From an uncultured Hydrogenophaga sp. (GTDB lineage: Bacteria; Pseudomonadota; Gammaproteobacteria; Burkholderiales; Burkholderiaceae_C), in contig CAYFFJ010000003.1 of NCBI GenBank assembly GCA_964342395.1, positions 2,181 through 66,180 of the forward strand: a stretch of DNA of 64,000 nucleotides. The letters are read 5' to 3'. The notes below the pieces were generated by a model that worked only from the letters and a program-made list of their open reading frames with translations, searched no databases and was not told the DNA's origin. The translations under genes were made by a program, and so were the position numbers. Position 1 is the first letter of the stretch. The number at the start of each line of letters is the position of its first letter. This document shows positions 27,531-59,512 of this stretch, piece by piece.

Positions 27531-28407
27531 GGTAGGTGACCACCGTGGGGTCTTCGGGGGGAATCTGCCCCTCGGCGACCTTGGGCTTGGGCGGCTCGAT
27601 GATGTCGAGCACGGCCACGTAGGTTTTGCGGGCCAGGTCGCTGTTCCAGGTTTTGTCGCGCATCAAAATTTCCAGCAGCTCGTCCATGGCGTCGGTCCAG
27701 CGCTGCTCGGCCATGCGCAATTGGGCAATGCCGAAGCGGGCATCAAAGTCGCGCTTGTTGGCGGCAATTTTTGAAAGAAATTGGGCCTCAGCGCTTGTCT
27801 GGTCTGCGAAGTGCGCTACAGAATCAAGCGCTTTGATCCAGTGGTTCAGCGAATCGAGCTTGCGCACACCGGCGGCTTTGGCAATGACCGGGGCAAAGGC
27901 CACCTTGGCCTCGTCTTCCAGGCCCATTTCCAGCAGCAGCTTGACCAGGTCGAAGCGGGCGTCGTCGTTGTTGGGGTCGGTTTCCACGGCCTGTTGCAGC
28001 TTGTTCAGGGCGGCTTCCACATCGCCGTCGTCCAGGGCTTGCAGGGCCTCTTCTTCCTCGGCCTGGGCTTCCAGCTCGTTTTCGGCGGGCACGTGCTTGT
28101 CCAGGAACGCCTTCACCTGGCCTTCGGACTGCGCCCCCATGAAACCGTCCGCCGGCTTGCCGCCCACCATCAGCACACAGGTGGGAATGCTGCGGATGCC
28201 AAAGGCACCCGCCAACTCTTGTTCTTCGTCGGAATTGATTTTCACCAGCTTGAAGCGGCCGTTGTAGGCGGCTTCAAGCTTCTCCAGCACAGGCCCCAGC
28301 GATTTGCAGGGGCCGCACCAGGGGGCCCAGAAGTCCACCAGCACCGGGGTGGTCATGGAGGCTTCGACCACCTCGGTTTCAAAATTGGCAACGGTCACGT
28401 CGATCAT
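27499..28407 (-). CDS. thioredoxin-domain/TPR co-chaperone, YbbN(CnoX)-like
   Basis: Start at MIDVTVANFETEV with WAPWCGPCK. The C-terminal half is a helical TPR-like domain. The 5' extension of ORF 27499..28701 is rejected. Confidence 0.85.
   Translation of the reverse strand: MIDVTVANFETEVVEASMTTPVLVDFWAPWCGPCKSLGPVLEKLEAAYNGRFKLVKINSDEEQELAGAFGIRSIPTCVLMVGGKPADGFMGAQSEGQVKAFLDKHVPAENELEAQAEEEEALQALDDGDVEAALNKLQQAVETDPNNDDARFDLVKLLLEMGLEDEAKVAFAPVIAKAAGVRKLDSLNHWIKALDSVAHFADQTSAEAQFLSKIAANKRDFDARFGIAQLRMAEQRWTDAMDELLEILMRDKTWNSDLARKTYVAVLDIIEPPKPKVAEGQIPPEDPTVVTYRRRLSSVVLS
27763..27825 (-). repeat. interspersed repeat copy R7 (inside the ybbN-like CDS, in frame)
   Basis: In forward orientation: GTAGCGCAC..CAGACCAGACAAGCGCTGAGGCCCAATTTCTTTCAAAAATTGCC. 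It is translated as SVAHFADQTSAEAQFLSKIA. Confidence 0.6.
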
Positions 28408-28546
28408 GGCAAGGCACCTGGCTGAAGGGGAAAACGGAAGAAAACGGGGCAAAAAGTAGAATGGCGACTTTACCGGAAGCGCCTCACAGCCCCCCGTTTG
28501 CCACCGGCCCGCGCCCCCCGCCGGGCCACCCGCCCCCTTCGTTGCC

Positions 28547-29071
28547 ATGACCGAACACGCCACCCCCACCTCCGCCACCGCCATCCAGATCGGGGTGGTC
28601 ATGGGCTCCAGCAGCGACTGGGACACCATGCAACACGCGGTGGACATCCTCCAGCAGTTCGGCATTGCCCACGAGGCCCGCGTGGTCTCGGCCCACCGCA
28701 TGCCCGACGACCTGTTTGCCTACGCCGAAAGCGCCGGGCCACGCGGCCTGACCGCCATCATTGCCGGGGCGGGCGGTGCCGCCCACCTGCCGGGCATGCT
28801 GGCCGCCAAAACCACCGTGCCCGTGCTGGGTGTGCCCGTGGCCAGCCGCCACCTGCAAGGCGTGGATTCGCTGCACAGCATCGTGCAAATGCCCAAGGGC
28901 ATTCCGGTGGCCACGTTTGCCATTGGCAACGCCGGGGCGGCCAACGCCGCGCTGTTTGCCGTGGCCATGCTGGCAGGGCAAGACCCCGCGCTGCAGGCCC
29001 GCTTGCAAGCCTTCCGCACCGCCCAGACCGAAGCCGCCCGCGCCATGGTGGTGCCACCGGTGGCCTCTTGA
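28547..29071 (+). CDS. purE: 5-(carboxyamino)imidazole ribonucleotide mutase
   Basis: [14 protein letters not shown] and [10 protein letters not shown] motifs. Confidence 0.95.
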
Positions 29072-29099
29072 TCCGTTTGACCTTGCCCGCGCCCCCGAC

Positions 29100-30311
29100 A
29101 TGACCTCCAAAACACTCCTGCCCGGCAGCACCTCCGACCGCGGCCAACAACTCACGCTGGGCGTGATGGGCGGCGGCCAGCTGGGCCGCATGTTTGTGCA
29201 CGCGGCGCAGGCCATGGGCTACTTCCCCGCCGTGCTCGACCCGGACCCGGCCAGCCCCGCCGGGCGGGTGAGCCACTTCCACATCCAAACCGCTTACGGC
29301 GACGAGCAGGGCCTGGCCCAACTCATGCAGCGGTGCGACGCCATCACCACCGAGTTTGAAAACGTGCCCGCCCCGGCGCTGATGACACTGGCCGCCCACC
29401 GCCCCGTGGCCCCCGGCGCCAACGCCGTGGCCGTGGCGCAAGACCGGGTGAAAGAAAAAGCCCTGTTTGTGGCCTGTGCCGCCGACAGCGGGGTGAACCC
29501 CGCGCCCTATGCGTCCATCACCACGCCCGAGCTGCTGGCCGCCGTGCCCGCCAGCCTGTTGCCCGGCATTCTGAAAACCAGCACCCTGGGCTACGACGGC
29601 AAAGGCCAGGTGCGCGTGACCACCCGCGAAGCGCTGGCCGCCGCCTGGGACCAACTGGGCCGCGTGCCCTGCGTGCTGGAAAAAATGCTGCCGCTGGTGT
29701 CCGAGTGCTCGGTCATCGTGGCACGTGGGGCCGATGGCGCGTGTGTGCACTTCCCCGTGCAGCGCAACCTGCACCTCGACGGCATTCTGGCCGTGACCGA
29801 GGTTTATGAAGAAAATATGCCTCAAGCGCTTGCTGATAAAGCAGTGACAGCTGCGAAATTCATTGCAGCCCATCTGCACTACGTGGGCGTGTTGTGCGTG
29901 GAGTTTTTCGTGGTGGACGACGGCAGCGCCGACGGCGAGCTGGTGGTGAATGAAATGGCACCCCGCCCCCACAACAGCGGGCACTACACGCAAAACGCCT
30001 GCACCCTGTCGCAGTTCGACTTGCAGGTGCGCGCCATGGCCGGCATGCCTCTGGTGCAGCCGCGCCAGCACAGCCCTGCCGCCATGCTCAACCTGCTGGG
30101 CGACCTGTGGTTTGCCGCCGATGGCAGCGAGCGCACCCCAGCCTGGGACGCCGTGCTGGCCCTGCCCGGCACACACTTGCACCTGTACGGCAAGCTGGAA
30201 GCCCGCCAAGGCCGCAAGATGGGCCACCTGAACATCACCGCCGCCACGGCAGCCGAGGTCCGCGCCACCGCGCTGCGGGCCTGCGAGTTGCTGGGCCTGC
30301 CAGCGTTCTGA
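29100..30311 (+). CDS. purK: 5-(carboxyamino)imidazole ribonucleotide synthase
   Basis: Start at MTSKTLLPG. ATP-grasp features: GVMGGGQLGRM, GYDGKGQ, NEMAPRPHNSGH. It follows purE. Confidence 0.9.
   Translation: MTSKTLLPGSTSDRGQQLTLGVMGGGQLGRMFVHAAQAMGYFPAVLDPDPASPAGRVSHFHIQTAYGDEQGLAQLMQRCDAITTEFENVPAPALMTLAAHRPVAPGANAVAVAQDRVKEKALFVACAADSGVNPAPYASITTPELLAAVPASLLPGILKTSTLGYDGKGQVRVTTREALAAAWDQLGRVPCVLEKMLPLVSECSVIVARGADGACVHFPVQRNLHLDGILAVTEVYEENMPQALADKAVTAAKFIAAHLHYVGVLCVEFFVVDDGSADGELVVNEMAPRPHNSGHYTQNACTLSQFDLQVRAMAGMPLVQPRQHSPAAMLNLLGDLWFAADGSERTPAWDAVLALPGTHLHLYGKLEARQGRKMGHLNITAATAAEVRATALRACELLGLPAF
29803..29866 (-). repeat. interspersed repeat copy R6 (inside the purK CDS, read in reverse orientation)
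   Basis: The plus strand TGAAGAAAATATGCCTCAAGCGCTTGCTGATAAAGCAGTGACAGCTGCGAAATTCAT aligns with copy R5. It is an AT-rich island in a GC-rich gene and is translated as EENMPQALADKAVTAAKFI. Confidence 0.5.
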
Positions 30312-30336
30312 GCCACCGCTGCCTGCCCCGCCCAAC

Positions 30337-31380: not shown

Positions 31381-31423
31381 GATACGCGTCTTTTCCCCCG
31401 CCCGAACCCCGGAACCTTTTGCC

Positions 31424-32374: not shown

Positions 32375-32393
32375 GCGGTGGGCCTGCGCGGCC

Positions 32394-32648
32394 TCAGCGG
32401 TAGCGCAGCTTCATGAACAGGATGCCGCTGGCCAGCGCCAGCGTCACGGTGTTGGAAATCACCACGGGCCAGGCGCCCAGCAGCGCGCCATACACCAGCC
32501 ACCCCGCCACGCCGGTGGTGAACACGCTGTACATGCCCAACGAGATACCGCTCACGTCTTTGGTTTTGAAGGTGAGCCACACCTGGGGAATGAAGCTGGC
32601 AGTGGTCAGGGTGGCGGCGAAAAAGCCAACGGTGTCGGTCGCGGTCAT
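32394..32648 (-). CDS. SemiSWEET (PQ-loop) sugar transporter
   Basis: 84 aa with 3 TM segments, the PQ motif in TTASFIPQVWLTFKTKDVSGISL, and a C-terminal FMKLRYR typical of bacterial SemiSWEETs. Confidence 0.8.
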   Translation of the reverse strand: MTATDTVGFFAATLTTASFIPQVWLTFKTKDVSGISLGMYSVFTTGVAGWLVYGALLGAWPVVISNTVTLALASGILFMKLRYR

Positions 32649-32664
32649 GGCGGGAATGGATCAA

Positions 32665-34119
32665 TCAAGGCGCTTGGGAAGCGGCCCACTCTAACAGCGC
32701 GTCCATCACCGGGCGGGCCTGCGGGGCATTGGCGTGGTTGACCATGCCCACCACCACCAGGGGGCGCCCGTTGCGGGCCCACACATACCCGGCCACGGCC
32801 ACCACGTCGCGCAGCGAGCCGGTTTTGATGCGGGCGTTGCCCAGCGCCAGCTTCATCACCCCGCGCTCGCCCATGCGCGCCGCGGTGCCGTCCACCCCCG
32901 CCACGGGCAGCGACTGGCGCAGCACCTCGCCACTGGGGTGGGCGGCCGCGTCACGCAGCAAGGCCAGCAGGCCATCGGCGGTGATGCGCTCTTCGCGCGA
33001 CAGGCCCGAGCCGTTGTCCATCACCGGCGCCGGGGCCTTGGCGCCAAAGCGGGTGTGCCACCAACGGCCCACCCGCTGGCGGGCACGCTCGAACGTGGCA
33101 GGCGCGGCGGGCGAGGCCGCCAGGGTCAGAAACACCTGCTGCGCCATCACGTTGTTGCTGTGCTTGTTGATGTCGGCCACGATGTCGGCCAGGGGCAACG
33201 AAAGGGCTTCGTGCAGCAACCGGGCCTGCGGCGGCACAGGCCCCAAGCGGGTGACGCCGGTGAGCAGCCCGCCCCCGGCGCGCCACAGGCCCTCCAGCGC
33301 ACGGGCCGCGTATTGGCCGGGCTCCACGTAGGCCACGGGCCAGGAGCGCTCACCGCAGCGGGCGGGGTAGTGGCCCGCAAAACGGATGGCATTGGGGTCG
33401 TCAAACCGGGCTTGCAGGCCACCGCGCCAGTCGCCACAAGCGGCGTTGGTCAGGGGCACAGAGGCATCCACCGCCAGCCCGGCCAGCGGGGGCTCATAGG
33501 TCACACGGGCCATGCCTGCGGCGGGGTCGGGCACAAAGCCCATCACCACGGCTTTGAAATTCACCAGCAACGCCTCAGGCGCCGCGTTGTAGGGGCGCAG
33601 GCGCTCGCCGTCGAACGCGGCCGGGTCGGCCGCAGGCACGGCAAACGCGCTTTGGTCCAGCACGATGTCGCCGCGCACCACGGTCACGCCCGCCTCGTGC
33701 ACGGCTTGCAGGGCAGCGGCAATGCGCTCCATCACAAACTTCGGGTCACCCCCGCCGCGGATGTGCAGGTTGCCGCGCAGCAGGCCTTGCGCCACCGTGC
33801 CGTCCACGTAAAAACCGGTGCGCCACAGGTGGGCAGGGCCCAGCAAATCGAGCGCGGCATGGGTGGTGACGAGCTTCATGACCGAGGCCGGGTTCATGGG
33901 CCGCTGCGCGCCCAGCGCCAGCAGCGGCGCCCCTCCGTCCACCGGGGCCACCAGCAGGGCAACAGCATCGTCGGGCAGCCCGGCTTTTTTCACGGCCTGG
34001 CGCAAGCTGGGCGGCCAGGCGCTGGGCTGCGCCCAGGCCACGCCCCCCCACCCCCCCATCCCACACAGGGCCAACACACACACACAACGGGCAAACACAG
34101 GGGACATGGGGCAGACCAC
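32665..34119 (-). CDS. dacB: D-alanyl-D-alanine carboxypeptidase/endopeptidase, PBP4 family
   Basis: SxxK (ASVMK), SxN (HSNN) and KTG (IKTGSL) motifs plus a signal peptide. An alternative start exists at 34107. Confidence 0.9.
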   Translation of the reverse strand: MVCPMSPVFARCVCVLALCGMGGWGGVAWAQPSAWPPSLRQAVKKAGLPDDAVALLVAPVDGGAPLLALGAQRPMNPASVMKLVTTHAALDLLGPAHLWRTGFYVDGTVAQGLLRGNLHIRGGGDPKFVMERIAAALQAVHEAGVTVVRGDIVLDQSAFAVPAADPAAFDGERLRPYNAAPEALLVNFKAVVMGFVPDPAAGMARVTYEPPLAGLAVDASVPLTNAACGDWRGGLQARFDDPNAIRFAGHYPARCGERSWPVAYVEPGQYAARALEGLWRAGGGLLTGVTRLGPVPPQARLLHEALSLPLADIVADINKHSNNVMAQQVFLTLAASPAAPATFERARQRVGRWWHTRFGAKAPAPVMDNGSGLSREERITADGLLALLRDAAAHPSGEVLRQSLPVAGVDGTAARMGERGVMKLALGNARIKTGSLRDVVAVAGYVWARNGRPLVVVGMVNHANAPQARPVMDALLEWAASQAP

Positions 34120-34211
34120 GGCAAAAAAGACAAAGGGGCAAATTATCCAGGGGGCTGGCCGATAATCCGTGGCCGCCCGCCGCGCCCGCCGCCGCGCCTC
34201 AACGGCACCAA

Positions 34212-34274
34212 AAAAATAGCAAACTTTTCAATACAGACAAGCGCAATAGGCCAAAAACGTGACAAAAACATTGC
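34212..34274 (+). repeat. interspersed repeat copy R1 (intergenic between dacB and tsaB; overlaps the tsaB GTG start)
   Basis: AAATAGCAAACTTTTCAATACAGACAAGCGCAATAGGCCAAAAACGTGACAAAAACATTGC. Confidence 0.75.
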
Positions 34275-35062
34275 GCCTGCTGGCCCTGGACACCGGCACC
34301 GCCGAACAACACGTGGGCGTGGCCCACCTGCCAAGCAGCGACGGCAAGGCAGCGTTTTGGCTGCACAGCGGCGACGGTGGCGCACAGGCCTCGCTCTCGC
34401 TCATCCCCACCGTGCTGGATTTGCTGGCCCAGGCCCACACCCCGCTGGCCGGGCTGGACGCGCTGGTGTTTGGCCGGGGCCCCGGCTCGTTCACGGGGCT
34501 GCGCACCGCCTGCGCGGTGGTGCAAGGGCTGGCGTATGGCACCCGGTCAAACACGCACCCGCTGGGTCTGCCCGTGCTGGGCATTGACAGCCTCATGGCC
34601 GTGGCCGAAGACGCGCGCCAGCACTGGCACACCGACCACGCCTCGGCACCCGGCACCCCGCTGACCGTGACCGCCCTGCTCGACGCCCGCATGGACGAGG
34701 TGTACGCCGCCACCTACACCTTTGCCGACGCCACCCAGCCCCAGGCCACCCTGGCCGGCGGCCCCTGGCTGCTCAAGCCCGAGCAAGTGGCGGGCATGCT
34801 GGCCCCCACCGCACACACCCACCTGCTGGCGGGCAATGCCTTCGAGGCTTACAGCCCCCGGCTGCCCACGCTCCTGCCCCGCCTGGCCGCCGCGCCCACC
34901 GCCGCCGCCCTGCTGCGCCTGGCCCCCGCGCTGCTGGCGCAAGGCCTGGCAGGCCCCGCCGCCGACGCCCAGCCCCTGTACGTGCGCGACAAGGTGGCCC
35001 AAACCACCGCCGAGCGCGAATCGGCCCGCCACACCCCGGCAGCCACAGGCGGGGTCGCATGA
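34259..35062 (+). CDS. tsaB: tRNA t6A37 biosynthesis protein TsaB
   Basis: LALDTGT, GRGPGSFTGLR and the link to rimI. The apparent start is GTG. Confidence 0.85.
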   Translation: MTKTLRLLALDTGTAEQHVGVAHLPSSDGKAAFWLHSGDGGAQASLSLIPTVLDLLAQAHTPLAGLDALVFGRGPGSFTGLRTACAVVQGLAYGTRSNTHPLGLPVLGIDSLMAVAEDARQHWHTDHASAPGTPLTVTALLDARMDEVYAATYTFADATQPQATLAGGPWLLKPEQVAGMLAPTAHTHLLAGNAFEAYSPRLPTLLPRLAAAPTAAALLRLAPALLAQGLAGPAADAQPLYVRDKVAQTTAERESARHTPAATGGVA

Positions 35063-36431: not shown

Positions 36432-36442
36432 AATTCGCCCCC

Positions 36443-37267
36443 ATGACCTTCATTGAAAAACTCGGCGCCGCCAGCGCCCAACACAACAGCCTGCTTTGCG
36501 TGGGCCTGGACCCCGAGCCCACCCGCTTTCCCGGTGCGTGGCAGGGCGACGCCAGCAAAATTTTTGATTTCTGCGCGGCCATCGTGGACGCCACCGCCGA
36601 CATCGCGCAGTCGTTCAAACCGCAAATTGCCTACTTCGCCGCCCACCGCGCCGAAGACCAGCTGGAAAAGCTGATGGCCCACATGCGCCGCGTGGCCCCC
36701 CAGGTGCCGGTGATTCTGGACGCCAAACGCGGCGACATCGGCTCCACCGCCGAGCAATACGCCAAAGAAGCCTTCGAGCGCTACCAGGCCGACTGCGTCA
36801 CGCTGTCGCCCTTCATGGGTTTTGACTCGGTGCTGCCCTATTTGAAGCACGAAGGCAAAGGCGCCTACCTGCTGTGCCGCACCTCCAACCCCGGCGGCGA
36901 CGACCTGCAAAGCCAGCGCCTGGCCAGCGTGGACGGCCAACCCCTGCTGTACGAACACATCGCCCGCCTGGCCCAAGGCCCGTGGAACGCGAACGGCCAA
37001 CTGGGCCTGGTGGTGGGCGCCACCTACCCGGCTGAAATTGCCCGTGTGCGCGCTCTGGCACCCACCCTGCCCCTGCTGATTCCCGGCGTGGGCGCGCAGG
37101 GGGGCGACGCCAAAGCCACGGTGCAGGCAGGCCTCACCGCGCAAGGACTGATCTCAGTCAACTCGTCGCGCGCCATCCTGTACGCCAGCAGCGGTGCCGA
37201 CTTTGCCGACGCGGCACGCGCCGAAGCCATTCGCACGCGCGAACTGCTGAACGCCTCAATGGCATAG
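36443..37267 (+). CDS. pyrF: orotidine 5'-phosphate decarboxylase (type 2)
   Basis: [19 protein letters not shown] and PGVGAQGG motifs. Confidence 0.9.
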
Positions 37268-37318
37268 CAAACAAACCAATACAGTCAAGCGCTAGAGGCC
37301 AAAAAATCCTAAAATCGG
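37264..37318 (+). repeat. interspersed repeat copy R4 (supplies the pyrF TAG stop)
   Basis: ATAGCAAACAAACCAATACAGTCAAGCGCTAGAGGCCAAAAAATCCTAAAATCGG. Confidence 0.7.
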
Positions 37319-37349
37319 AGTACGCCCACGGCTCAAGGCCGGTGGGGTG

Positions 37350-37502
37350 TCAAGGTAGGTTCCGGCTGAGGTTGAGCGAGACGATGTCTTGCAGGTCAAA
37401 GTCCGACTCCAGCTGAGCCGGGTCAGCCGGGCACTTGGTTTCTATGCGAGACAGGCATCTGCGCAGCGACTCCAGCTTTTGCTCTACAACGGTGGCATCC
37501 AT
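37350..37502 (-). pseudogene. truncated HepT (DUF86) toxin remnant, N-terminal 50 codons only
   Basis: My own translation gives MDATVVEQKLESLRRCLSRIETKCPADPAQLESDFDLQDIVSLNLSRNLP*. It starts 19 nt before the MNT stop, which is the typical TA overlap. The C-terminal Rx4HxY region is missing. Confidence 0.6.
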
Positions 37503-37906
37503 GCGGCCCGCCTTTCCTTCAGTAAACGGTTGCGATACGGGGCAAAGTCGGCCTGATCGAACAGGTTGCGGCTGATCAACTTGCCGTAGGCGGTGTCGTC
37601 ACCGCTTATCCGGTGTCCATGCCGCAAGATTTCGCTCAGCAAGGGGGGCGACACGGCCTGCAAATCAATCAAATCCACCGGACGACCGGTCTCTTGCGCC
37701 AGGGCACCGATGATGCCCATCCGCTCATCCTCCGTCAGTGCCCCTCGCGCGCTGGCAACGGCAATGTCCAGATCGCTGTCGGGTCGAGGAGTGCCACGTG
37801 CCACGGAGCCGAACACCAGCGCCAGGGTCAGCTGCGGAAAACGCGCCAGCACCCGGCGCAAGGCGGCGTCGCTGGGGCTGTCGGGTCGAAGGCTTGAAGC
37901 ACTCAT
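37484..37906 (-). CDS. MNT-type nucleotidyltransferase antitoxin (type VII TA, HepT/MNT)
   Basis: Start at MSASSLRPD follows AAGGAA. Polymerase-beta nucleotidyltransferase motif GSVARGTPRPDSDLDIAV. Confidence 0.75.
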   Translation of the reverse strand: MSASSLRPDSPSDAALRRVLARFPQLTLALVFGSVARGTPRPDSDLDIAVASARGALTEDERMGIIGALAQETGRPVDLIDLQAVSPPLLSEILRHGHRISGDDTAYGKLISRNLFDQADFAPYRNRLLKERRAAWMPPL

Positions 37907-38003
37907 CAAAGGTGTTCCTTCAGGGTCAACACACGAAATAACATACCGCAGAACGGTGCCCAGGCAAACGGTCACTTCCGTGGTTTGAGTGGCATCGGCC
38001 GTT

Positions 38004-41000
38004 TCACCCCAAATACCGCTTCAAATACCGCCCGGTGAAACTGGCCTCGCAAGCCGCTATTGTCTCGGGCGTGCCGGTGGCCACCACGGTGCCGCCACCC
38101 GCACCGCCCTCGGGCCCCATGTCAATCAGCCAGTCGGCGGTTTTGATGACATCGAGGTTGTGCTCGATCACGACCAGCGTGTTGCCCGCGTCGCGCAGCT
38201 GGTGCAGCACCTTCAGCAGCAGCTCGATGTCGGCAAAGTGCAGGCCGGTGGTGGGTTCGTCCAATATGTAGAGGGTGCGGCCCGTGTCGCGTTTGCTCAG
38301 TTCCAGCGCCAGCTTCACGCGCTGGGCTTCGCCGCCGCTCAGCGTGGTGGCGCTTTGCCCTAAGCGCACGTAGCTCAGGCCCACGTCGAGCAGGGTTTGC
38401 AGCTTGCGGTGGATGGTGGGCACGGCGCTGAAAAACGCCCCGGCCTCGCCCACCGTCATGTCCAGCACCTGGGCGATGTTTTTGCCCTTGTACTGCACCT
38501 CCAGCGTTTCGCGGTTGTAGCGTTTGCCGTGGCACACGTCGCAGGGCACGTACACGTCGGGCAGAAAGTGCATTTCCACCTTCACCACGCCGTCGCCCTG
38601 GCAGGCTTCGCAGCGCCCGCCGCCGCTGCCCTGGGCCACGTTGAAGCTGAAGCGCCCGGGGCCATAGCCGCGTTCTTTGGCGGTGTTGGTTTCGGCCATC
38701 AGCTCGCGGATGGCGGTGAACAGCCCCGTGTAGGTGGCGGGGTTGCTGCGCGGGGTGCGGCCAATGGGGCTTTGATCGACGTTGATGACCTTGTCGAAGT
38801 GCTCCAGCCCCTGAATTTCTTCGTGGGCGGCGGGCTCTTCGTGGGCGCGGTACAGGTGTTTGGCCACAGCCGTGTACAGCGTGTCGTTGACCAGCGTGCT
38901 TTTGCCCGAGCCGCTCACGCCCGTCACGCAAGTGAGCAGGCCCACGGGGAAGGCGGCGGTCACGCCCTTCAGGTTGTGGCCGCTGGCGCCCGCCACGGTC
39001 ACCCAGTCCCACGGGGTGTGGCGCTCGGTGGGCACGGTGATTTTTTTCGTGCCGCAGAGGTATTGGCCGGTGAGCGAGTCGGGGTTGGCAATGACCTGCG
39101 CGGCTGTGCCCTGCGCCATGATGCGCCCGCCGTGCACGCCCGCGCCGGGGCCCATGTCGATGACGTGGTCGGCCATGCGGATCATGTCTTCGTCGTGCTC
39201 CACCACCAGCACGGTGTTGCCCAGGTCGCGCAGGTGGATGAGGGTGGCAATCAGGCGGTCGTTGTCGCGCTGGTGCAGGCCGATGCTGGGCTCGTCCAGC
39301 ACGTACATCACGCCGGTCAGGCCGCTGCCAATCTGGCTGGCCAGGCGGATGCGCTGGGCCTCGCCGCCGCTGAGGGTTTCGGCGCTGCGCTCCAGGCTCA
39401 GGTAGTTCAGCCCCACGTCGTTCAAAAACTTCAGGCGCTGGCGGATTTCGTGCACCACCTTGGCCGCGATGTCGCCCTTGGCACCGCTCAAATGCAAAGC
39501 GTCGAAGTACGCCAGCGACTCGCCCAGGGTGATGTGGCTCACGTCGTAGATGGCGCGTTTCTGCGCGCCCTCGCCCACAAACACGTGGCGGGCTTCGCGG
39601 CGCAGGCGTGACCCAAGGCAGTCGGGGCAAGACTGCACAGCGCGGTAGCGGCCCAGTTCTTCGCGCACGGTGGCGCTGTCGGTTTCGCGGTAGCGGCGCT
39701 CGAAGTTGCGCAAGATGCCTTCAAACGGGTGCTCTTTGGTCACCTTGCGCCCAGCGGTTTTGCCCGAATCGATGACGTACTGGAAGGGCACGTCTTGCTC
39801 GCCCGAGCCGAACAACAGCACCTGGCGGGCTTGCTCGGGCAGGTCTTCCCAGGCGGCCTCGGGGTCGAACCCATAGTGCGCCGCCAGGCTTTCAACCATG
39901 GCGAAGTAGTAGCCGTTGCGCCGGTCCCAGCCTTTGATGGCGCCGCTGGCCAGGCTGAGCGTGGGGAAGGCGACGATGCGGGCGGGGTCAAACACCTCGG
40001 TGTGGCCCAGGCCGCTGCAACTGGGGCACGCGCCGTGCGGCGAGTTGAACGAGAACAGGCGCGGCTCCAGCTCGCCCAGCGAGTAGCTGCACACCGGGCA
40101 GGCAAATTTTGAAGAAAAAAGCCTATCGGCGCTTGATGGTATTGAATTGTTCGCTATCTTTTCATCGATGTTCAACACCAAGGCCCGGCCATCGGCCAGG
40201 CGCAGGGCGGCCTCGAAGCTTTCGGCCAGACGCTGGCGCTGGGCCAGGTAAGCCTGGGCGTCTTCGTGGTCGGCGGGCGGTGCATCGGCGGGCAAGGCGG
40301 CCGTGGGTGGCGTGGCGCGCACCTTCAGGCGGTCCACCACCACGTCCACGTCGTGCGGCTGGGCAGGGTCCAGCTCGGTCAGTTCGTGGCTTTCCAGGGT
40401 TTGGCCGTTCACGCGAAAGCGCACATAACCCTGGGCCACCAGACCGTCGAACACGTCGCCAAAATCGCCGGTGCGGCCCCGGGCAATGGGTGCCAACACC
40501 ATCAGGCGCGTGCCCTCGGGCCAGGCCAGCACGGCGTCCACCATCTGGCTCACGCTCAGGGCCGCCAGGGGTTGGCCGTGTTCGGGGCAGTGCGGCGTGC
40601 CGGCGCGGGCAAACAGCAGGCGCAGGTAGTCGTGGATTTCGGTCACCGTGCCCACGGTAGAGCGCGGGTTGTGGCTGGTGGCTTTTTGCTCGATGCTGAT
40701 GGCGGGGCTCAGGCCCTCAATCAGGTCCACATCGGGCTTGTCCATCAGCTGCAGGAACTGGCGGGCGTAGGCGCTCAGGCTCTCCACGTAGCGGCGCTGG
40801 CCTTCGGCGTACAGCGTGTCAAACGCCAGACTGCTTTTGCCAGAGCCCGACAGCCCGGTGATGACCACCAGTTTGTCGCGCGGGATGTCGAGGTCGATGT
40901 TCTTCAGGTTGTGCGTGCGCGCACCCCGCACGCTGATGCGCTGGTGGCGCAAGGCAGCGGCCAAGGGCAGGCCGTCGTCGGGCGACGTGGGAAGAACGGG

Positions 41001-41018
41001 GGTGGGGGCTGGCGACAT
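38004..41018 (-). CDS. uvrA: excinuclease ABC subunit A
   Basis: Start at MSPAPTPV. Two ABC modules ([36 protein letters not shown] twice) and zinc modules (CPVCSYS...[14 protein letters not shown]...CDVCHGKR). Confidence 0.95.
40101..40164 (-). repeat. interspersed repeat copy R5 (in frame inside uvrA)
   Basis: In forward orientation: GATAGCGAACAATTCAATACCATCAAGCGCCGATAGGCTTTTTTCTTCAAAATTTGCC. It is a conspicuous AT-rich patch and is translated as [21 protein letters not shown]. Confidence 0.75.
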
Positions 41019-41077
41019 AGGGAAGGGAGTCTCAGGGGGCAACCGGGCATTATCGGGTCCGGAACAATCAAGGACAA

Positions 41078-50293: not shown

Positions 50294-50320
50294 CCCATTA
50301 CAAGAAGAAGGAAGACGAAC

Positions 50321-51736
<1,416 letters not shown>

Positions 51737-51765
51737 GCCCTCCTACCCGCGCGCACGCCCCCCTG

Positions 51766-51802
51766 AAAAGGGTGACAACCCCCAGGTTGCCACCCTTTTT
51801 TT
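51766..51802 (+). terminator. rho-independent terminator after pntB
   Basis: AAAAGGGTGACAAC-ccccag-GTTGCCACCCTTTTTTT. The stem pairs 9 of 10 bases and is followed by a T7 tract. Confidence 0.8.
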
Positions 51803-51914
51803 CATGCGGAAAAGGTGTCAGACAAACGTCAGTCTGGGTCAAAATCACAGACAATGCAAAATAAACGAACGATCGTGCGGAAATTTTGACATCACAAGAA
51901 GGAGACAAACAGCC

Positions 51915-53600: not shown

Positions 53601-53604
53601 GCCC

Positions 53605-53628
53605 ATGCCCATGCCCATGCCCATGCCC
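53605..53628 (+). repeat. hexanucleotide tandem repeat (ATGCCC)x4 at the mtnN start
   Basis: Read directly. It encodes MPMPMPMP and begins 5 nt after the fadD stop. Confidence 0.9.
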
Positions 53629-54402
53629 CGCCCCTTTCGCATTGGCCTGATGGCCGCCATGCCGCAAGAGCTTCAGGCCGTGCTGGCCCTGATGCCCAAC
53701 GAGCACCGCGAAACGGTGGCGAGCCGCACGTTCTGGCCGGGCCACTTGGGCGGCTGCGAGGTGGTGGCCGTGGTGTCGGGCATTGGCAAGGTGGCCGCAG
53801 CCACCACCGCCACGCTGCTGCTGCAGCGGTTTGGCGTGGACGGCCTGCTGTTCACCGGTGTGGCCGGTGGACTGGGGGCGGGCGTGAAGGTGGGCGACAT
53901 CGTCGTGGCCCAGCGGTTTTTGCAGCACGACATGGACGCCTCGCCCCTGTTCCCGCGCCATGAGGTGCCCGGCTACGGTCAAGCCCTGTTTGCCACCCAC
54001 CCCGGCTGGACACACGCCCTGGCCCAGGCCAGCCAACACACGCTGGACCACCTGCCCACCTGGCTGGGAGCGGACACCCTGGCCGCGTTCCAGCTGCAAG
54101 GGGCGCAGGTGCACCAGGGGCTGATCGTCAGTGGCGACCGCTTTGTGGCCACCAGCGTCGAAAGCGCTGCACTGCGCCAGGCCCTGCCCGACGCGTTGGC
54201 GGTGGAAATGGAAGGGGCCGCCGTGGCCCAGGTGTGCCACGACTTCGGCGTGCCTTTTGCCGCCGTGCGCACCGTGTCAGACCGCGCCGACGACAGCGCC
54301 CATGTGGACTTTGGCCGCTTCGTGGCCGACGTGGCCAGCCGCTACAGCGCGCAAGTGGTGCTGGCGGCCCTGTCTGCCTTGGGCAAGCCTGGAACGGTCT
54401 GA
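53605..54402 (+). CDS. mtnN: 5'-methylthioadenosine/S-adenosylhomocysteine nucleosidase
   Basis: SGIGKVAAA, FTGVAGGL and VEMEGAAVAQVC...RTVSDRAD. The start lies within an (ATGCCC)4 repeat, so the exact ATG is ambiguous (53605/53611/53617/53623). Confidence 0.85.
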   Translation: MPMPMPMPRPFRIGLMAAMPQELQAVLALMPNEHRETVASRTFWPGHLGGCEVVAVVSGIGKVAAATTATLLLQRFGVDGLLFTGVAGGLGAGVKVGDIVVAQRFLQHDMDASPLFPRHEVPGYGQALFATHPGWTHALAQASQHTLDHLPTWLGADTLAAFQLQGAQVHQGLIVSGDRFVATSVESAALRQALPDALAVEMEGAAVAQVCHDFGVPFAAVRTVSDRADDSAHVDFGRFVADVASRYSAQVVLAALSALGKPGTV

Positions 54403-54461
54403 AATATTGATAGCAAACTATTCAATACAGACAAGCGTCATAGGCACTTTTTGTCTGAAAT
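54403..54461 (+). repeat. interspersed repeat copy R2 (between convergent mtnN and corA)
   Basis: ATTGATAGCAAACTATTCAATACAGACAAGCGTCATAGGCACTTTTTGTCTGAAAT. GTCTGAAAT occurs at both ends (54397-54405 and 54453-54461). CAGACAA and TTGTCTG can pair. Confidence 0.75.
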
Positions 54462-55448
54462 TCACTTCAACCAGCCGCGCTTTCTGAAATACAGCATGGG
54501 CCCCACGGCAGAGGCCACCATCAGGCACAGCGCGGCGGGGTAGCCCCAGGTCTGGCTCAGCTCGGGCATGTGCTGGAAGTTCATGCCGTAAATGCTGGCA
54601 ATCAAGGTGGGCGGCAGCAAGGCCACGCTGGCCACCGAGAAGATCTTGATGATCTTGTTCTGGTTGATGTTGATGAAACCCACCGTGGCGTCCATCAAGA
54701 AGTTGATCTTGTCGAACAAAAACGCGGTGTGGCCGTCGAGCGAATCGAGGTCGCGCAAAATTTGCCGCGCGTCTTCAAACTGCTCGGTGCCCAGCATGCG
54801 GGTGCGCATCATGAAGCTGACGGCGCGGCGCGTGTCCATCACGTTGCGGCGGATGCGGCCCGACATGTCTTCGTGCCGCGCAATGGCCGACAGCACTTCG
54901 CTGGCTTTGTTGTCGGTCACGTCGCCGTTGAGCACCTGGCGGCTGACGTTTTCCAGGTCGTCGTAAATATCTTCCAACGTATCGGCGCAGTACTCTGCAT
55001 CCACGTCGAACAGCATCAGCAGCACGTCTTTGGCGTCGTCAATCAGGCCCGGCATGCGGCGCGCGCGCATGCGCAGCAGGCGGAACACGGGCACGTCTTC
55101 GTCGTGGATGGAAAACAGCACGCCCCGGCTTTTCAGCTCGTCGTTCTGCTCGTTCAGGATGAAGGCCACGCGCACGGCGCGGGGGTCTTCGTCGTCGTCG
55201 ATCAGGAAGTCGGAGCGGATGTGCAACTCGCCGTTGTCTTCCTCGAAAAAGCGGGCGGACTCTTCAATGTCCTCGTCCATCGCGTCTTCGGGAATGCTCA
55301 GGCCAAAGTGCTGCTTGACCCAGCGCCGCTCTTCAGGCGAGGGCGATTCCAGGTCCACCCAAATGGGCTTGAACTGCGCCAGTTCTTCCAGCGAGTCGAT
55401 TTCTTCTTGAAACAAACGGCCATTGGCCAGCGTGAACACGTTGAGCAT
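54462..55448 (-). CDS. corA: magnesium/cobalt transporter CorA
   Basis: Start at MLNVFTLANG, with the YGMNF signature and two C-terminal TM helices. Confidence 0.9.
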   Translation of the reverse strand: MLNVFTLANGRLFQEEIDSLEELAQFKPIWVDLESPSPEERRWVKQHFGLSIPEDAMDEDIEESARFFEEDNGELHIRSDFLIDDDEDPRAVRVAFILNEQNDELKSRGVLFSIHDEDVPVFRLLRMRARRMPGLIDDAKDVLLMLFDVDAEYCADTLEDIYDDLENVSRQVLNGDVTDNKASEVLSAIARHEDMSGRIRRNVMDTRRAVSFMMRTRMLGTEQFEDARQILRDLDSLDGHTAFLFDKINFLMDATVGFININQNKIIKIFSVASVALLPPTLIASIYGMNFQHMPELSQTWGYPAALCLMVASAVGPMLYFRKRGWLK

Positions 55449-55676
55449 GACGGGCTCCGTTGCAGGTGGGGCGGGCAGCGGCCCCATGGGCGGGCGCGCT
55501 GCAAAAAAAGGGGGGTAGGCGTCGCTTTCACCCCCGCTGCCGCCGCGCCCGGTGTGCCGGGCTCAGGCTGTCTGCAAGGCTGAAAGCGTGCCACTGGGGC
55601 TGGCTTCCAAGTCGTGTCTCCTGTGGGAAAGTGGCCGGATTATGGCACCGCCGGGTGAGCGCCGCAGCCCCCCTGC

Positions 55677-57347
55677 TCAGCGGGATTTGTCGTTGGGATT
55701 TTCACGCAGTTGCTCGCGTTGTTGCTGCACCAGCACGCGGTAGCGGGTGTCGATGATGGACAACTCCATGTGGTCCACCTCGCGCTGGGTGCGGGTGAGC
55801 TCCCGGCCCAGCTCGCGCGCGGCCCTCAGACGGTCGATGGCACCGCCCACATCGAATTGGGCGGCCCGCGCCTCGGCCTCGGCTCGGATGGCGCGCAGTG
55901 GGTGGCCCAAGGCCTGCCAGGCCTGGCCCAACACCTGCCAGGCCAGCGGGTCGGTGGGGTGCGTGGCCAACCACAGTTGCAGCGGGTCGGTCACCTCGAC
56001 AGCCCGCCCTTGGGCCAACAGGGTCTGTGCGCCCAGCACCAGCGCCCCACGCCCAGGGGCGCGCACGGCGGCCTGCGCTTGCGCCAGCACCTGGGCTTGC
56101 CAGGCGGCAGGGGTGGCGGCACCCCCCGGCGACAGCCACACCTCCAGTGCCAGCAACCGAGCGGCCTGGGCGGCGCTGGCGTCGAGCGAAGCCACGTTCA
56201 GCAACCCCTGCACACAGCGCCAGGCGTCCGTTGGCTGCTTCAGGCGCAAGGCCGACACCGCGCCGGCGTACCACGCAGCGGCCTGGGCGGTGGCGTCGCG
56301 CGGGGCCGCCGGGGGCGTGGCCTCGGACAACCAGGCGCGCCAGCGGGCCACGCTGGACTCGGCCATCACACGCGCCCGCGCCGCCATCAAGGCATGGTGC
56401 TGGGCAGACACGGGGGCGGTCATGGGGGCTTGGGAACCGGGGTGCGCAGGGTGATCGGTGTGCGTGCCAGAAGGAAGGGCCAGCGCCAGGCGGGTTTGCA
56501 TGTCGGCCATGCGCTCGGTGGTCAGCGGGTGGCTGCGCAGGTAGGGAAAGGCGCCGTCATCGTTCAGCCGCGACGCGTGTTGCAGCTTGTCGAACATAGT
56601 GACAAAGCCCGTGCCATTGAAGCCCGCGCCGGTCATGATGTTGTAGCCCACGCGGTCGGCCTCGCGCTCCATGTCACGCGAAAAATTCAGCTGCGACTGT
56701 GCGGCCACCGCCTGCCCCCCCACCACAGCGGCCTGCACCACGTCGGTGTTTTTGCTGGCACTGGCGGCCAAGGCCCCCAAAATCATGGCCGCCACCATCA
56801 GCGGAGCCTGCTTGTCCTGGCGCTCCAGCAAGCGTGAAATGTGGCGCTGCGACACGTGGGTGAGTTCGTGTGCCAGCACCGAAGCCAGCTCGTCTGCGGT
56901 GCTCACCGTGGCCATCAGGCCCAGGTGCACGCCCAGGTAGCCGCCAGGCAGGGCAAAGGCGTTGACGCTGGGGTCCCGCGCCAGCATCAACCGCCAGGCA
57001 AAACGCTCTGCCAGTTCGGGGGCCACGTCACCCCGCGCTCGGGCCGAGGCCAGCAGGGGTTGCCAAATGGCCTGCAAGTAATCGCTCAGCACCGGATCGT
57101 CCAGGTAATCGGGGTCGCGGAAGATCTGCTGGGCAATGCGTTCACCCAATTGGCGCTCGGCCGCCAGGTCCAGCGCTCCCGCCTCGCCCATGCGGGGCAG
57201 CGCCAACGGGGCATTGGCGGGCGCCAGCGGCACCGCAAAACAAATAGCTGCAAGCCCAATACAGACAAGCGTCAGAGGCAGTTTTTTATTCAAAATAGCT
57301 CCATCCACACACGCCAGCCATGGCACCTCCCCGTGAAGGGAATGCAA
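55677..57347 (-). CDS. M48-family periplasmic metalloprotease with TPR domain (BepA/YfgC-like)
   Basis: [10 protein letters not shown] zinc motif and a C-terminal TPR-like helical region. The start is uncertain. The signal-peptide region is encoded by repeat R3. Confidence 0.85.
57241..57300 (+). repeat. interspersed repeat copy R3 (inside the 5' end of the M48 protease gene, read in reverse)
   Basis: AAATAGCTGCAAGCCCAATACAGACAAGCGTCAGAGGCAGTTTTTTATTCAAAATAGCT. The reverse frame gives [20 protein letters not shown]. Confidence 0.75.
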
Positions 57348-57422
57348 CAGCCACCATCACAACGGGTGTCCATTGTCATCCGGGCACGTGCCGCCTGCGG
57401 CCCGGTGGCTAAACTGCGCGCC

Positions 57423-57920
57423 ATGCACACGCCAGACACCCCCTCATCACCCCTGACCCACTTTGACACCCAGGGCCAAGCCCACATGGTGGACGTGGGG
57501 GCCAAGGCCCACACACACCGCGTGGCCGTGGCCGAAGGCCGCATCACCATGCAACCGGCCACCCTGGCCCTGGTGACCAGCGGCACCGCCAAAAAAGGCG
57601 ACGTGCTGGGCATTGCCCGACTGGCCGGCATCATGGGCGCGAAAAAAACCGCCGACCTGATTCCCCTGTGCCACCCCATCGCCCTCACCCGGGTGGCCGT
57701 GGCATTTGAAGTGCTGGCCGAGCTGAATGCGGTGCGCTGCACCGCCACCGCCGAAACCACCGGCCCCACCGGGGTTGAAATGGAAGCTCTCACCGCCGTG
57801 CAAGTGGCCCTGCTGACCATTTACGACATGTGCAAAGCGGCCGACCGGGGCATGGAAATGACGGGGGTGCGGCTGCTGGAGAAGCGGGGGGGGAAGAGCG
57901 GGCATTTTGTGGCGGGGTGA
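57423..57920 (+). CDS. moaC: cyclic pyranopterin monophosphate synthase
   Basis: [44 protein letters not shown] and [11 protein letters not shown]. Confidence 0.9.
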
Positions 57921-57936
57921 TGCCCACTGCGTCAGC

Positions 57937-58710
57937 TCAAAAACCATCCAACGGAACAAATTTCAAAGGCTGGGCGGTTGTCGAATCCATCAACAGCGTC
58001 CACGCAATCCCCCTGCGTGATACCACGGGCAGCCAACTGACCTGCGAGTGTTGGCGCTGCAAATTCAAAACAGCGTTATCCAACAGCAATTTTTGAGAAG
58101 GGTGTTTGCCATAGAGCACGTCCAGCGCCTGGGCGCGTGACAACACATCGTGCTGAAAATTGCTGTACTCCCCCCATCGATCAGCGCGCATAAATGCTTC
58201 GTTACCTGCCAGTGATTGGTTCACTTGGTCCAGGTAGTCAACGTCCTCTGGTTTGGCCGTTCGGCTTCCAATCAATACCGGCCCACCCAACCAAGACGGA
58301 GACGGCACCATGGCTGGCTTTTTCGCAAGCCCAATTTCATCCAGCTCAGACATCGTCAACACCTGGAAGCGGTCCACGTCGTAAATCAGATACACCGGCC
58401 GCGCAAGCCAAACGGTTTGAAGTCCATAGGCCAAAGCGCCAAGCTGCAAAATGGCAACAAAACCAAGGTCCAAGACCAGCTCGCGCCTTGGTTTTGCAGG
58501 ATTGAACAAAACCAGCGTCAACAAAGGTCCGCACACCACATCCACGCCCATAAGGATGAAGAAGAGTTCGAAGCCCCCCAACATTTCGGCGTAGGGCGTT
58601 GGGTAAAGCCGCCCAAATACAAGCCACGCGGCAACAGCAGCTACCGCAAATGACCCCAACAAATGCAAACCCGAAGCACGGGCCGCCGCACGCAATCTGA
58701 GCCTGTTCAT
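57937..58710 (-). CDS. TfpX/TfpZ(FimB)-like type IV pilin accessory membrane protein
   Basis: Immediately downstream of the pilin gene, with three N-terminal TM segments and visibly lower GC than the surroundings. The family call is from memory of TfpZ/FimB gene context. ATG 58710 is preferred over the TTG at 58725. Confidence 0.5.
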   Translation of the reverse strand: MNRLRLRAAARASGLHLLGSFAVAAVAAWLVFGRLYPTPYAEMLGGFELFFILMGVDVVCGPLLTLVLFNPAKPRRELVLDLGFVAILQLGALAYGLQTVWLARPVYLIYDVDRFQVLTMSELDEIGLAKKPAMVPSPSWLGGPVLIGSRTAKPEDVDYLDQVNQSLAGNEAFMRADRWGEYSNFQHDVLSRAQALDVLYGKHPSQKLLLDNAVLNLQRQHSQVSWLPVVSRRGIAWTLLMDSTTAQPLKFVPLDGF

Positions 58711-58727
58711 GAATAAGTGCCCCAAAT

Positions 58728-58756
58728 TAAAAAAGGGGCCTAAGCCCCCTTTAAAT
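58728..58756 (-). terminator. intrinsic terminator/attenuator after the pilin gene
   Basis: On the minus strand: AAAGGGGGC-tta-GGCCCCTTTTTTAATTT. This is a hairpin plus U-tract lying between pilA and the accessory gene. Confidence 0.7.
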
Positions 58757-58768
58757 GGTCAGAGAAGA

Positions 58769-59308
58769 TCAACGGCACTCTGCAGGCGCGTACTTGGCAA
58801 CCATCGTCGCGGTATTGGCAACACCCGCGACAACTGCTTTGCCGCTTGCGTAGCAAGTCCAAATAATGCTTGCAGCAGGAATAGTACCTGCAGTCAATGC
58901 CGCATTATTTGAAGAAGGCGCCAACACCAACGTTTGACCAGAAGCTGCCGCAGTGTATGTCACCGTGATCACGCCAGTGGCGGTTGCGCCAAACACTGAA
59001 GTAACGTTTTTCGAATTGGTAATGCCGCCGTTCAAGCTACAGTTTCCTGCGGCTGTGCAAAACGTGGTCCCAGCTGCGTTTATCGGGATACCCTTGAAAA
59101 AACCACCTAATGCGGCCGTGGTGCCATTGGCAGCGTTGTCGGCCACCACGTTCTTCAGTCCTGAGCCCAAGACCATGCCTTCCGTCACACGCGCACGCAC
59201 GGTGTAATCCTGGTAAGCAGGCAAAGCCACGGCGGCCAAAATACCGATGATCGCGACGACGATCATCAATTCGATCAGGGTGAAACCCTTTTGAACCATC
59301 TGTTTCAT
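58769..59308 (-). CDS. pilA: type IVa major pilin
   Basis: Prepilin leader MKQMVQKG followed by [27 protein letters not shown], and a C-terminal Cys...Cys disulfide loop (CYASGKAV...APAEC). Confidence 0.95.
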
Positions 59309-59353
59309 GAAAACTCCTTGAACACGGCGTCGGTATTGACGTGGCGACCTTAC

Positions 59354-59368
59354 AGCATTTGCCGTGCC
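59354..59368 (-). promoter_or_regulatory. sigma-54 (-24/-12) promoter candidate for pilA
   Basis: The minus strand reads GGCACGGCAAATGCT, with canonical GG-N10-GC spacing, about 45 nt upstream of the pilA ATG. Type IVa pilin genes are classically RpoN/PilR dependent. Confidence 0.55.
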
Positions 59369-59446
59369 CGCCCCAAATGGCCTTCCTTTGACCCATTTGG
59401 GGGCAATGTGGGCTGGAATGTGCGATTTTTTGTCACTTTCAGCATC

Positions 59447-59512
59447 GGCACGGTGACGAAAGATGGCACCTAGCGCTTGCTTACAAACAACTGTTCACTA
59501 CAGCTATTTGAT
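59447..59512 (-). repeat. interspersed repeat copy R8 (supplies the TAG stop of the GAF-GspE gene)
   Basis: In forward orientation: CAAATAGCTGTAGTGAACAGTTGTTTGTAAGCAAGCGCTAGGTGCCATCTTTCGTCACCG. This is the most diverged copy. Confidence 0.5.

Follow-up and report, generated by a model that had tools for sequence, protein, structure and literature searches.

The stretch analysed here, called the window throughout, comprises 64,000 nucleotides of contig CAYFFJ010000003.1 from an uncultured Hydrogenophaga sp. (assembly GCA_964342395.1, positions 2,181 to 66,180 of the forward strand). It carries copies of an AT-rich motif of about 66 nt, dispersed between genes and, read through in frame, within genes such as purK, uvrA and a ybbN/cnoX-like gene. 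Seven of these copies are true members of one repeat family, which is present across the Comamonadaceae and whose copies are old and vertically inherited. A preliminary description of the window had proposed eight copies, R1 to R8, which are given below with coordinates corresponding to profile columns 21-86. The expectation values (E) derive from a profile of 107 copies from related genomes or from an independent profile of 33 copies from other genomes.

R7: 27766-27831, minus strand; inside a ybbN/cnoX-like thioredoxin-TPR gene (27499-28407, minus strand); E 8e-9 with the independent profile.
R6: 29801-29866, minus strand; inside purK (29100-30311, plus strand); E 4.7e-9 with the independent profile.
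R1: 34204-34269, plus strand; between the divergent genes dacB and tsaB; E 1.4e-10 with the 107-copy profile and 3.9e-5 with the independent profile.
R4: 37252-37317, plus strand; 3' end of pyrF (36443-37267, plus strand); E 5e-13 with the 107-copy profile.
R5: 40104-40169, minus strand; inside uvrA (38004-41042, minus strand); E 1.4e-14 with the 107-copy profile.
R2: 54398-54463, plus strand; between a purine nucleoside phosphorylase-family gene and corA, which are convergent; E 7.5e-14 with the 107-copy profile.
R3: 57232-57297, plus strand; antisense in the 5' end of an M48 (BepA-like) peptidase gene (55677-57293, minus strand); E 2.4e-14 with the 107-copy profile.
R8, doubtful: 59447-59512, minus strand; at the stop codon of a GAF-PilB/MshE-like ATPase gene (59504-61867, minus strand); E 0.79 with the 107-copy profile.

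The AT-rich patches that the preliminary description had noticed in this GC-rich DNA (65 % GC) coincide with the motif copies. Its similarity claim also withstood shuffled controls: the 15-mer core, with up to three mismatches, occurred six times in the window against 1.19 expected, and none of 100 shuffles reached six occurrences. A profile of six window copies recovered R1, R2, R3, R4, R5 and R7 with E values of 1e-13 to 1e-16, while R6 was marginal and R8 at chance level; with the 107-copy profile R6 was found at E 2e-5 within the window. The independent profile contained no window sequence, and its 33 copies do not match the degenerate search pattern described below. Since it recovered all of R1 to R7, with E values from 3.9e-5 to 2.9e-10, these seven copies are real. 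The eighth could not be confirmed. R8 scored 4.2 bits with the 107-copy profile and was missed by the independent one. It carries ATAGC, which provides the pilB-like gene with its TAG stop codon, and CAAGCGCTAGGTGCC, with six extra bases separating the two; as a source of a stop codon in ATAGC it resembles R4. The membership of R8 is plausible but unsupported. Match quality is thus graded in the window, R1 to R4 being strongest, followed by R5 and R7, then R6 and finally R8.

The four genic copies named in the preliminary description, in uvrA, the ybbN-like gene, purK and the 5' end of the M48 peptidase gene, were all found in frame, and profiles and gene maps together support a repeat that is dispersed between genes as well as within them. 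R7 is read in the sense frame ATA/GTA-GCx as DSVAHFADQTSAEAQFLSKIAA, and R6 is read antisense in purK as VYEENMPQALADKAVTAAKFIA. R5 occupies, in a sense-frame reading of 22 residues, a variable loop of UvrA that precedes the conserved LFSxKFACPxC. The peptidase gene, with R3 at its 5' end, is divergent from moaC (57366-57920, plus strand). Among the other copies, R1 is flanked by dacB, encoding an S13 peptidase (32665-34041 or 34119, minus strand), and tsaB (34259-35062, plus strand), whose start is overlapped by the 3' end of R1. The stop codon of pyrF is the TAG within ATAGC of R4. R2 fills the entire gap of 59 nt between the purine nucleoside phosphorylase-family gene (53605-54402, plus strand) and corA (54462-55487, minus strand; both identified from Pfam), and both stop codons are situated at the edges of the element. 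The gene at R8, to which the pilus locus of the preliminary description alludes, encodes a T2SSE type II/IV secretion ATPase with N-terminal GAF and MshEN domains, an architecture that is MshE-like rather than that of a plain PilB.

Column statistics of the 107 copies gave a motif of about 66 nt, gCTATtaAAtt-ATAGC-(8 variable)-CAATAC-(3)-CAAGCG-CTaGAGGCC-(all-A or all-T tract)-gCTTaAAAATca, or in summary gCTAT-N7-ATAGC-N8-CAATAC-N3-CAAGCG-N4-AGGC-(A or T tract)-CTTnAAAAT; the columns on either side carry no information. As most of the 107 copies were gathered with a fixed 17-base pattern, the columns of that pattern are forced. In the copies obtained free of the pattern the best-kept blocks were (A/G)TAGC, AAGCG, GGC and the A/T tracts. 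Of the 107 copies, 101 have A and 6 have G as the first base of the head, which is A or G in the pattern-free ones; a CGTC tag is absent. Many pattern-free copies have a true palindrome, AGCGCTT-N5-7-AAGCGCT, in place of CAATAC, and hairpin members occur in loci of other genomes, for instance L047_804 (CTAGCGCTT-TCTGGAT-AAGCGCTAG), L057_4103, L039_466 and L123_863. Thus, the wider family looks REP-like (REP, repetitive extragenic palindromic), with a head tetranucleotide and a hairpin, of which the CAATAC subfamily in the window has lost the left arm. In other genomes (L063, L051, L053) head-to-head dimers are arranged around a shared GCTAT-N11-ATAGC centre. A textbook hairpin member, ATAGCTTCCAGCGCTT-ATCCATC-AAGCGCTAGAGGC, is situated at 863-921 of L123, in a relative otherwise free of copies near purK, which indicates that palindromic and non-palindromic CAATAC forms coexist across the family.

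A palindromic structure was not obtained for the window copies. The six strong copies had fold z-scores of -2.2 to +0.9 without a common structure, RNAalifold on the 107 copies predicted neither a structure nor covariation of pairs, and in the 28 of the 107 copies with a GCGC left arm fixed-register pairing was inconsistent. Neither inverted-repeat pairs nor terminal inverted repeats were reported at the window copies. Rfam gave no match at gathering scores and none on the copies at E values up to 5.

Copies beyond the window, which the preliminary description had left to a wider scan, are numerous. The pattern ATAGC-N8-CAATAC-N3-CAAGCG matched at least 113 loci in the species-representative genomes. 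Among the matches listed, four Comamonadaceae metagenome-assembled genomes (MAGs) had many copies (Lake Erken bin-6677, MFD03500 bin28, Hydrogenophaga Bin_4_4 and GS5), and one or two copies each were present in Acidovorax, Ottowia, Giesbergeria, Alicycliphilus, Comamonas, Curvibacter, Rhodoferax and Rubrivivax; plasmids of Diaphorobacter and Comamonas carried copies as well. The window itself was 99.94 % identical over 6.9 kb to a metagenome contig in ENA. Its density of seven copies in 64 kb, about one per 9 kb, is not general: in 692 kb around purK from 80 metagenomic relatives, of uncertain taxonomy and compared as loci rather than whole genomes, the profile matched seven times, and five of the seven matches were the purK site itself. 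Copy abundance differs more than 30-fold between lineages. Pattern matches in Rickettsia, Clostridia and Bacteroidota were not recognised by the family profile and are due to chance. The five Rickettsia loci (L009, L029, L031, L103, L109) fit the degenerate pattern and not the profile; L009 and L029 are orthologous and 91 % identical, and these matches most likely represent one conserved AT-rich locus hit by chance, with no link to the Rickettsia palindromic elements (RPEs).

Gene context was evaluated for 127 copies with genes called by a simple codon-score finder of our own, which is rough. One hundred and one copies were intergenic and 26 were wholly within genes, a share of 20 % compared to 89 % coding sequence. 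The intergenic copies were packed into very short gaps, with an enrichment in convergent gaps (31 observed, 14.5 expected) and a depletion in divergent ones (p about 2e-5 to 2e-6), and their ends often provided stop codons, TAG in ATAGC on one side and the terminal TCA, read as TGA on the other strand, on the other side. Orientation was random relative to flanking and host genes. The genic copies were 13 sense and 13 antisense, and four window copies are on the plus and three on the minus strand. The reading frame was restricted. Twelve of the 13 sense copies were in frame ATA-GCx, giving peptides of the type ..IAxxSIPSSA... (p=0.003), and 11 of the 13 antisense copies shared one frame, giving ..PPAL(A/D)GIAxxA... 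(p=2e-4).

Comparison with orthologous proteins revealed that the genic copies mostly overlay existing codons. The R6 patch of PurK aligned without a gap to 80 orthologs and to the Burkholderia PurK structures 4izo and 4e4t. YbbN had the same length through the R7 patch in more than 50 orthologs, including those without the motif, and showed only single-residue gaps to Escherichia coli CnoX (3qou); the patch has a GC content of 0.52 compared to 0.70-0.75 in most YbbN orthologs. In UvrA, orthologs without the motif read ..EMD-TGKEH-LFSAKFACP, and the window protein is longer by a net nine residues at R5, with the right end of the motif overlying the conserved LFSSKFA. The copy is common to the closest relatives, L046 and L002, while in the more distant L003 and others the repeat occupies this site in a different frame and with insertions of greater length; the gain in length ranges from +9 to about +21 residues across lineages. 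R3, read antisense, encodes a predicted signal peptide of the M48 peptidase, (M) plus 20 residues, just ahead of the conserved LP.MG of the mature protein, with an inferred TTG start at 57293. Several M48 orthologs have the same type of peptide, M(L/T)ILGKKRRLALASQALAAS..., and the signal peptides of others are unrelated. Of the four genic copies in the window, two therefore leave the protein length essentially unchanged, and one contributes less than half a unit.

Two side observations concern uvrA. Upstream of R5, at 40200-40330 of the window, a second hypervariable, Pro/Ala-rich UvrA loop is located just before a conserved stretch of 12 residues; in the Comamonadaceae orthologs this loop comprises anything from 0 to more than 40 residues. 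In the syntenic relative L003, a frameshift at a T run (3470-3480) divides uvrA into two gene calls, which is probably an assembly error and not a pseudogene.

The codons of the genic copies were analysed by synonymous randomisation, in which a position matrix made without the window copies scored 3000 draws per copy with codons redrawn from the usage of the window. The observed motif score was never reached, neither for YbbN (z=4.8) nor UvrA (z=4.9) nor PurK (z=7.8; each 0 of 3000). The window has a GC content at third codon positions (GC3) of 0.84. Within it, LFSSKFA of UvrA is spelled CTT TTT TCT TCA AAA TTT GCC, although CTT represents 3 % of the Leu codons and TCT and TCA 5 % and 4 % of the Ser codons, and the coding strand of purK at the motif uses ATA (2.3 % of Ile codons), GGA (2.7 % of Gly codons), AAT and TCA. 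The motif is thus written in rare synonymous codons. Merely conserved coding sequence was rejected as an explanation, as the motif is written at synonymous positions and also stands between genes elsewhere.

The purK site bears on the age of the copies. The patch is AT-rich in 19 of 80 orthologs (GC 0.39-0.58, the genes 0.59-0.69), which are scattered over several clades of a rough neighbour-joining tree. In 14 AT-rich lineages from separate clades the GC3 is 0.41 in the patch and 0.84 in the rest of the gene, compared to 0.87 and 0.89 in the GC-rich lineages. Among the representatives, 13 of the 18 AT-rich ones have retained ATA-GCx, compared to none of the 11 GC-rich ones, and the consensus of the element strand across clades reads GCTAT.GATTT.G(T/C)AGCTGC.ACCGC...GCAAGGGC.G..GGCAGATTTCCTTCaTAAAC. 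The copy persists in relatives that have almost no others. The YbbN site is motif-like in L171 and L134, the latter with a YbbN only 56 % identical. In this distant relative the positions of R1, R6 and R7 are all motif-like, its copy just upstream of tsaB being in the place of R1. Overall, the residue positions of the motif are retained even where the proteins of the lineages are no more than 50-75 % identical. The window copies resemble one another by only about 70-80 %, and orthologous positions are shared across genera. At least some copies are retained against the compositional pressure of the genome.

Over pyrF-uvrA, the Lake Erken MAG (L046) and the window have about 90-92 % identity and both carry R4 and R5; orthologous copies of R5 were also present in L002 and L003. 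The R4 ortholog at 4423-4490 of L046 differs by one mismatch in the left 30 nt, while the right halves diverge, an A-tract facing a T-tract. For 25 orthologous copy pairs, a set biased by the fact that both members had to be recognisable, mean identity was 0.85 in the element and 0.86 in the flank, and pairs with flanks of 0.71-0.75 identity had elements of 0.79-0.82. In the R5 orthologs of the window, L046 and L002 the differences cluster in the variable block, which is suggestive of gene conversion between copies but not decisive.

Next to R4, about 700 nt between the copy and the uvrA stop codon (window 37332-38003) are absent from the orthologous region of L046; the CAAGCGCT core of R4 directly precedes this indel. 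The segment contains an open reading frame (ORF) for a Polbeta/MNT-type nucleotidyltransferase (37484-37975, minus strand) and an ORF of 50 residues (37350-37502, minus strand), and looks like a toxin-antitoxin-like module.

Taken together, we tentatively favour, with less than even confidence, an ancient REP-like dispersed motif that is kept as a predicted recognition or architectural site on the DNA level and that entered genes by codon replacement. The motif would no longer be an actively inserting element; it would act as a site whose candidate reader in trans is a conserved protein of the host or a transposase-like protein that was domesticated. Genic copies may arise and be kept by stepwise substitution under a DNA-level constraint, or by short-patch templated replacement. 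In the latter case, copying from another copy at microhomologies would explain the net changes of 0, +9, +15, +17 and about +21 residues. A more specific and more doubtful form of this proposal would make the motif a selected genome-wide DNA signal of about 66 nt that a conserved Comamonadaceae protein reads and that, by way of rare synonymous codons, was written into essential genes such as purK, uvrA and cnoX and has remained there since the early history of the family. The reader could be a nucleoid or topology factor or a REP-type transposase that was domesticated, or else the motif could serve as an uptake or recombination signal of unusual length. Resemblance to the sites of sigma-54, sigma-32, IHF, Fis, Lrp, FNR, ArgR and to the PurR box was considered by eye only, and the matches were poor.

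Dispersed repeats of bacteria are commonly regarded as insertions or as palindromes outside genes; here codons were replaced one for one, and the motif forces the rarest codons (ATA, GGA, CTT, TCA) into housekeeping genes. If the motif is a selected DNA signal, purK, uvrA and cnoX would carry a second code, on the DNA level, over some 20 codons. If a protein reads it, it would be a new cis-acting signal of chromosome biology in a large and environmentally important bacterial family, and a clear example from nature of a protein code and a DNA code that overlap. For genome annotation, the copies give rise to spurious small ORFs and provide stop codons, and one copy also contributes a signal peptide with its start codon.

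Several results weigh against retention as a DNA-level site. In the PurK patch the fraction of identical codons at identical residues was 0.63 compared to 0.58 elsewhere, a value reached by 80 of 404 windows of the same size; this fraction is unexceptional, and strict selection on the sequence is therefore not supported. An excess of codon identity was rejected as proof of purifying selection, being not significant; the AT-richness and some blocks are clearly kept. R5 of the window was less similar to that of the Lake Erken MAG (0.79) than its flanks (0.91), which suggests a relaxed constraint on this copy. In other genomes, a copy in SrkA comes with about 17 extra residues and a copy in DusC is inside an insertion of about 50 residues, both relative to E. 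coli structures, so that insertion also occurs. Finally, the collection of copies by a pattern and the gene calls can bias the statistics.

The strongest competing explanation, in our view unlikely but to be taken seriously, is that the copies are relics of a selfish miniature mobile element similar to RPEs, MITEs (miniature transposable elements with inverted repeats) or the REP doublets called REPINs, possibly moved by a REP-associated tyrosine transposase (RAYT). Once inserted between genes and in frame in tolerant loops, these relics would now be neutral and decaying, and would seem conserved only since the time was short or since they became coding. In this case, the spread by short-patch replacement would differ from known transposition. 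The length insertions at the UvrA site and in SrkA and DusC agree with such an origin, as do the depletion of copies in genes, the different copy numbers between lineages and the indel of 700 nt that starts inside R4. Several traits link the family to REPs and REPINs. Both are short, present in many copies and mostly extragenic, and favour gene 3' ends and convergent gaps; many members have an (A/G)TAG head followed by an imperfect palindrome, AGCGCTT-N5-7-AAGCGCT, resembling GTAG-tagged REPs, and inverted head-to-head pairs occur. REPINs are described as persisting vertically over long periods, like this family. The motif differs from REPs and REPINs in its head, ATAG rather than GTAG, in the lack of the CGTC tag and in its size and composition, being an AT-rich unit of about 66 nt with a long A/T tail rather than a GC-rich one of 20-40 nt. 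The palindrome is lost in the subfamily of the window, and about 20 % of the copies lie in genes, where they overlay codons. No RAYT was found near the motif; a regular-expression screen for HUH...Y motifs, a weak test, detected no HUH/Y1 transposase-like ORF among the 784 predicted proteins of the 8-kb loci around pattern matches, about 0.9 Mb in all.

The preliminary description had drawn the analogy to RPEs as mobile in-frame insertions. Like RPEs and the in-frame MITEs of Coxiella, the motif is dispersed between and within genes and is read through in frame in tolerant regions of proteins. RPEs are reportedly palindromes of 100-150 bp that add tens of residues. The window copies have neither terminal inverted repeats nor a fold, two of the four genic copies are length-neutral and one adds nine residues while overlying LFSSKFA, and the sites are shared by distant relatives. 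The length neutrality in PurK and YbbN holds even against Burkholderia and E. coli proteins, and many deep lineages still use rare AT-rich codons at the PurK site despite a GC3 of 0.84 elsewhere in the gene. Clear target duplications were not observed. The one empty-site candidate, the mnmA 3' end in L058, had broken synteny to the window; R4 and R5 are both present in the relative with about 90 % identity, and the relatives at dacB-tsaB were too diverged for a clean empty-site comparison. An RPE-like mobile insertion does not fit the missing fold, the near-constant length of PurK and YbbN, the overlay of conserved residues in UvrA and the deep conservation of positions. The presence of the motif at the same sites in distant relatives also speaks against a recent insertion, by the refuting condition that the preliminary description had set. 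We place the motif among the REP-like dispersed repeats, with the unusual property of length-neutral residence in conserved coding sequence.

The other suggestion of the preliminary description, an extended protein- or uptake-recognition sequence, appears to fit the in-place evolution, the frame preference and the positional conservation better than the RPE-like picture. As a drive in its own right, in which a DNA-binding step of uptake or recombination would prefer motif-bearing DNA and motif-ward substitutions would be fixed where proteins tolerate them, it appears improbable. It would follow the example of the uptake signal sequences (USS) of Pasteurellaceae and the DNA uptake sequences (DUS) of Neisseriaceae. 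The length, frame and relative comparisons revealed traits of these signals in the motif: an origin in place in coding DNA without change of length, synonymous positions matching the motif, one preferred frame per orientation, both orientations in about equal numbers, AT-rich flanks, enrichment between convergent genes and stable homologous positions between species. USS positions are reportedly conserved between relatives in the Pasteurellaceae. The continuum of match quality from R1-R4 to R8 also agrees with such a drive. A short sharp core at about one per kb was not found: the motif is five to six times longer than the known signals and much more degenerate, compared to their sharply conserved core of 9-12 nt, and the 15-mer core did not occur in the window outside full elements. 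Its density in the window is lower by a factor of about ten, many relatives have hardly any copies, and only two matches outside the PurK site were present in the 692 kb of relatives. To our knowledge, neither an uptake bias nor natural competence has been reported for this group, and the pilB-like gene of the window is not evidence for competence.

A role in transcription or on the RNA level, as mobile promoter, terminator, small RNA or rare-codon pause site, is very improbable. By column counts the antisense strand is loosely promoter-like (A/T tract, TTGnnn, 16 nt, TATnAw), but only about one third of the copies have the T that a promoter would have at position -7, and a consensus scan for sigma-70-type promoters found none at any copy. 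Some T-tract copies adjoin or form terminator-like hairpins (L061, L051, the fold of R2), while terminator calls were at chance level. Clusters of rare codons could slow translation. The random orientation relative to flanking and host genes, the missing conserved RNA structure or covariation and the lack of an Rfam match speak against all these roles. Small non-coding repeats at gene ends that can supply regulatory or stop signals are known as enterobacterial repetitive intergenic consensus sequences (ERIC; intergenic repeat units, IRU) and as Correia elements (neisserial miniature insertion sequences, NEMIS), and share these traits with the motif; they differ in their long inverted repeats and strong folds, and Correia elements also in target duplications, and an overlay of conserved codons is not reported for them. 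A chance or compositional artefact of unrelated look-alike AT-rich patches, suggested by the chance-level scores of R8 and some weak matches, has a negligible probability and is refuted for the seven copies by the independent profile (E down to 2.9e-10), by shuffles that never reached the observed count and by more than 100 copies with the same block order in related genomes.

The preliminary description could not name a described family, and the literature gave no name either. No published description was found by organism, element type or exact sequence, in searches of incomplete coverage that leave room for an earlier one. Nunvar 2010 has no mention of Comamonadaceae in its main text. In Di Nocera 2013 they are likewise unmentioned in the main text, and a supplement lists only Polaromonas naphthalenivorans, under CGTC elements.

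Elsewhere in the window, the repeat families D1-D3 correspond to two paralogous genes for GFO/IDH/MocA-family oxidoreductases (7412-8434 and 20616-21641, both minus strand) with 71-78 % DNA identity over about 800 nt. Three AT-rich intergenic patches unrelated to the motif family, at 3528-3631, 5392-5489 and 11223-11459, contain short inverted repeats, for example TGATATCAAT...ATTGATATTC near 3560-3610, and look like operator or promoter regions of divergent genes.

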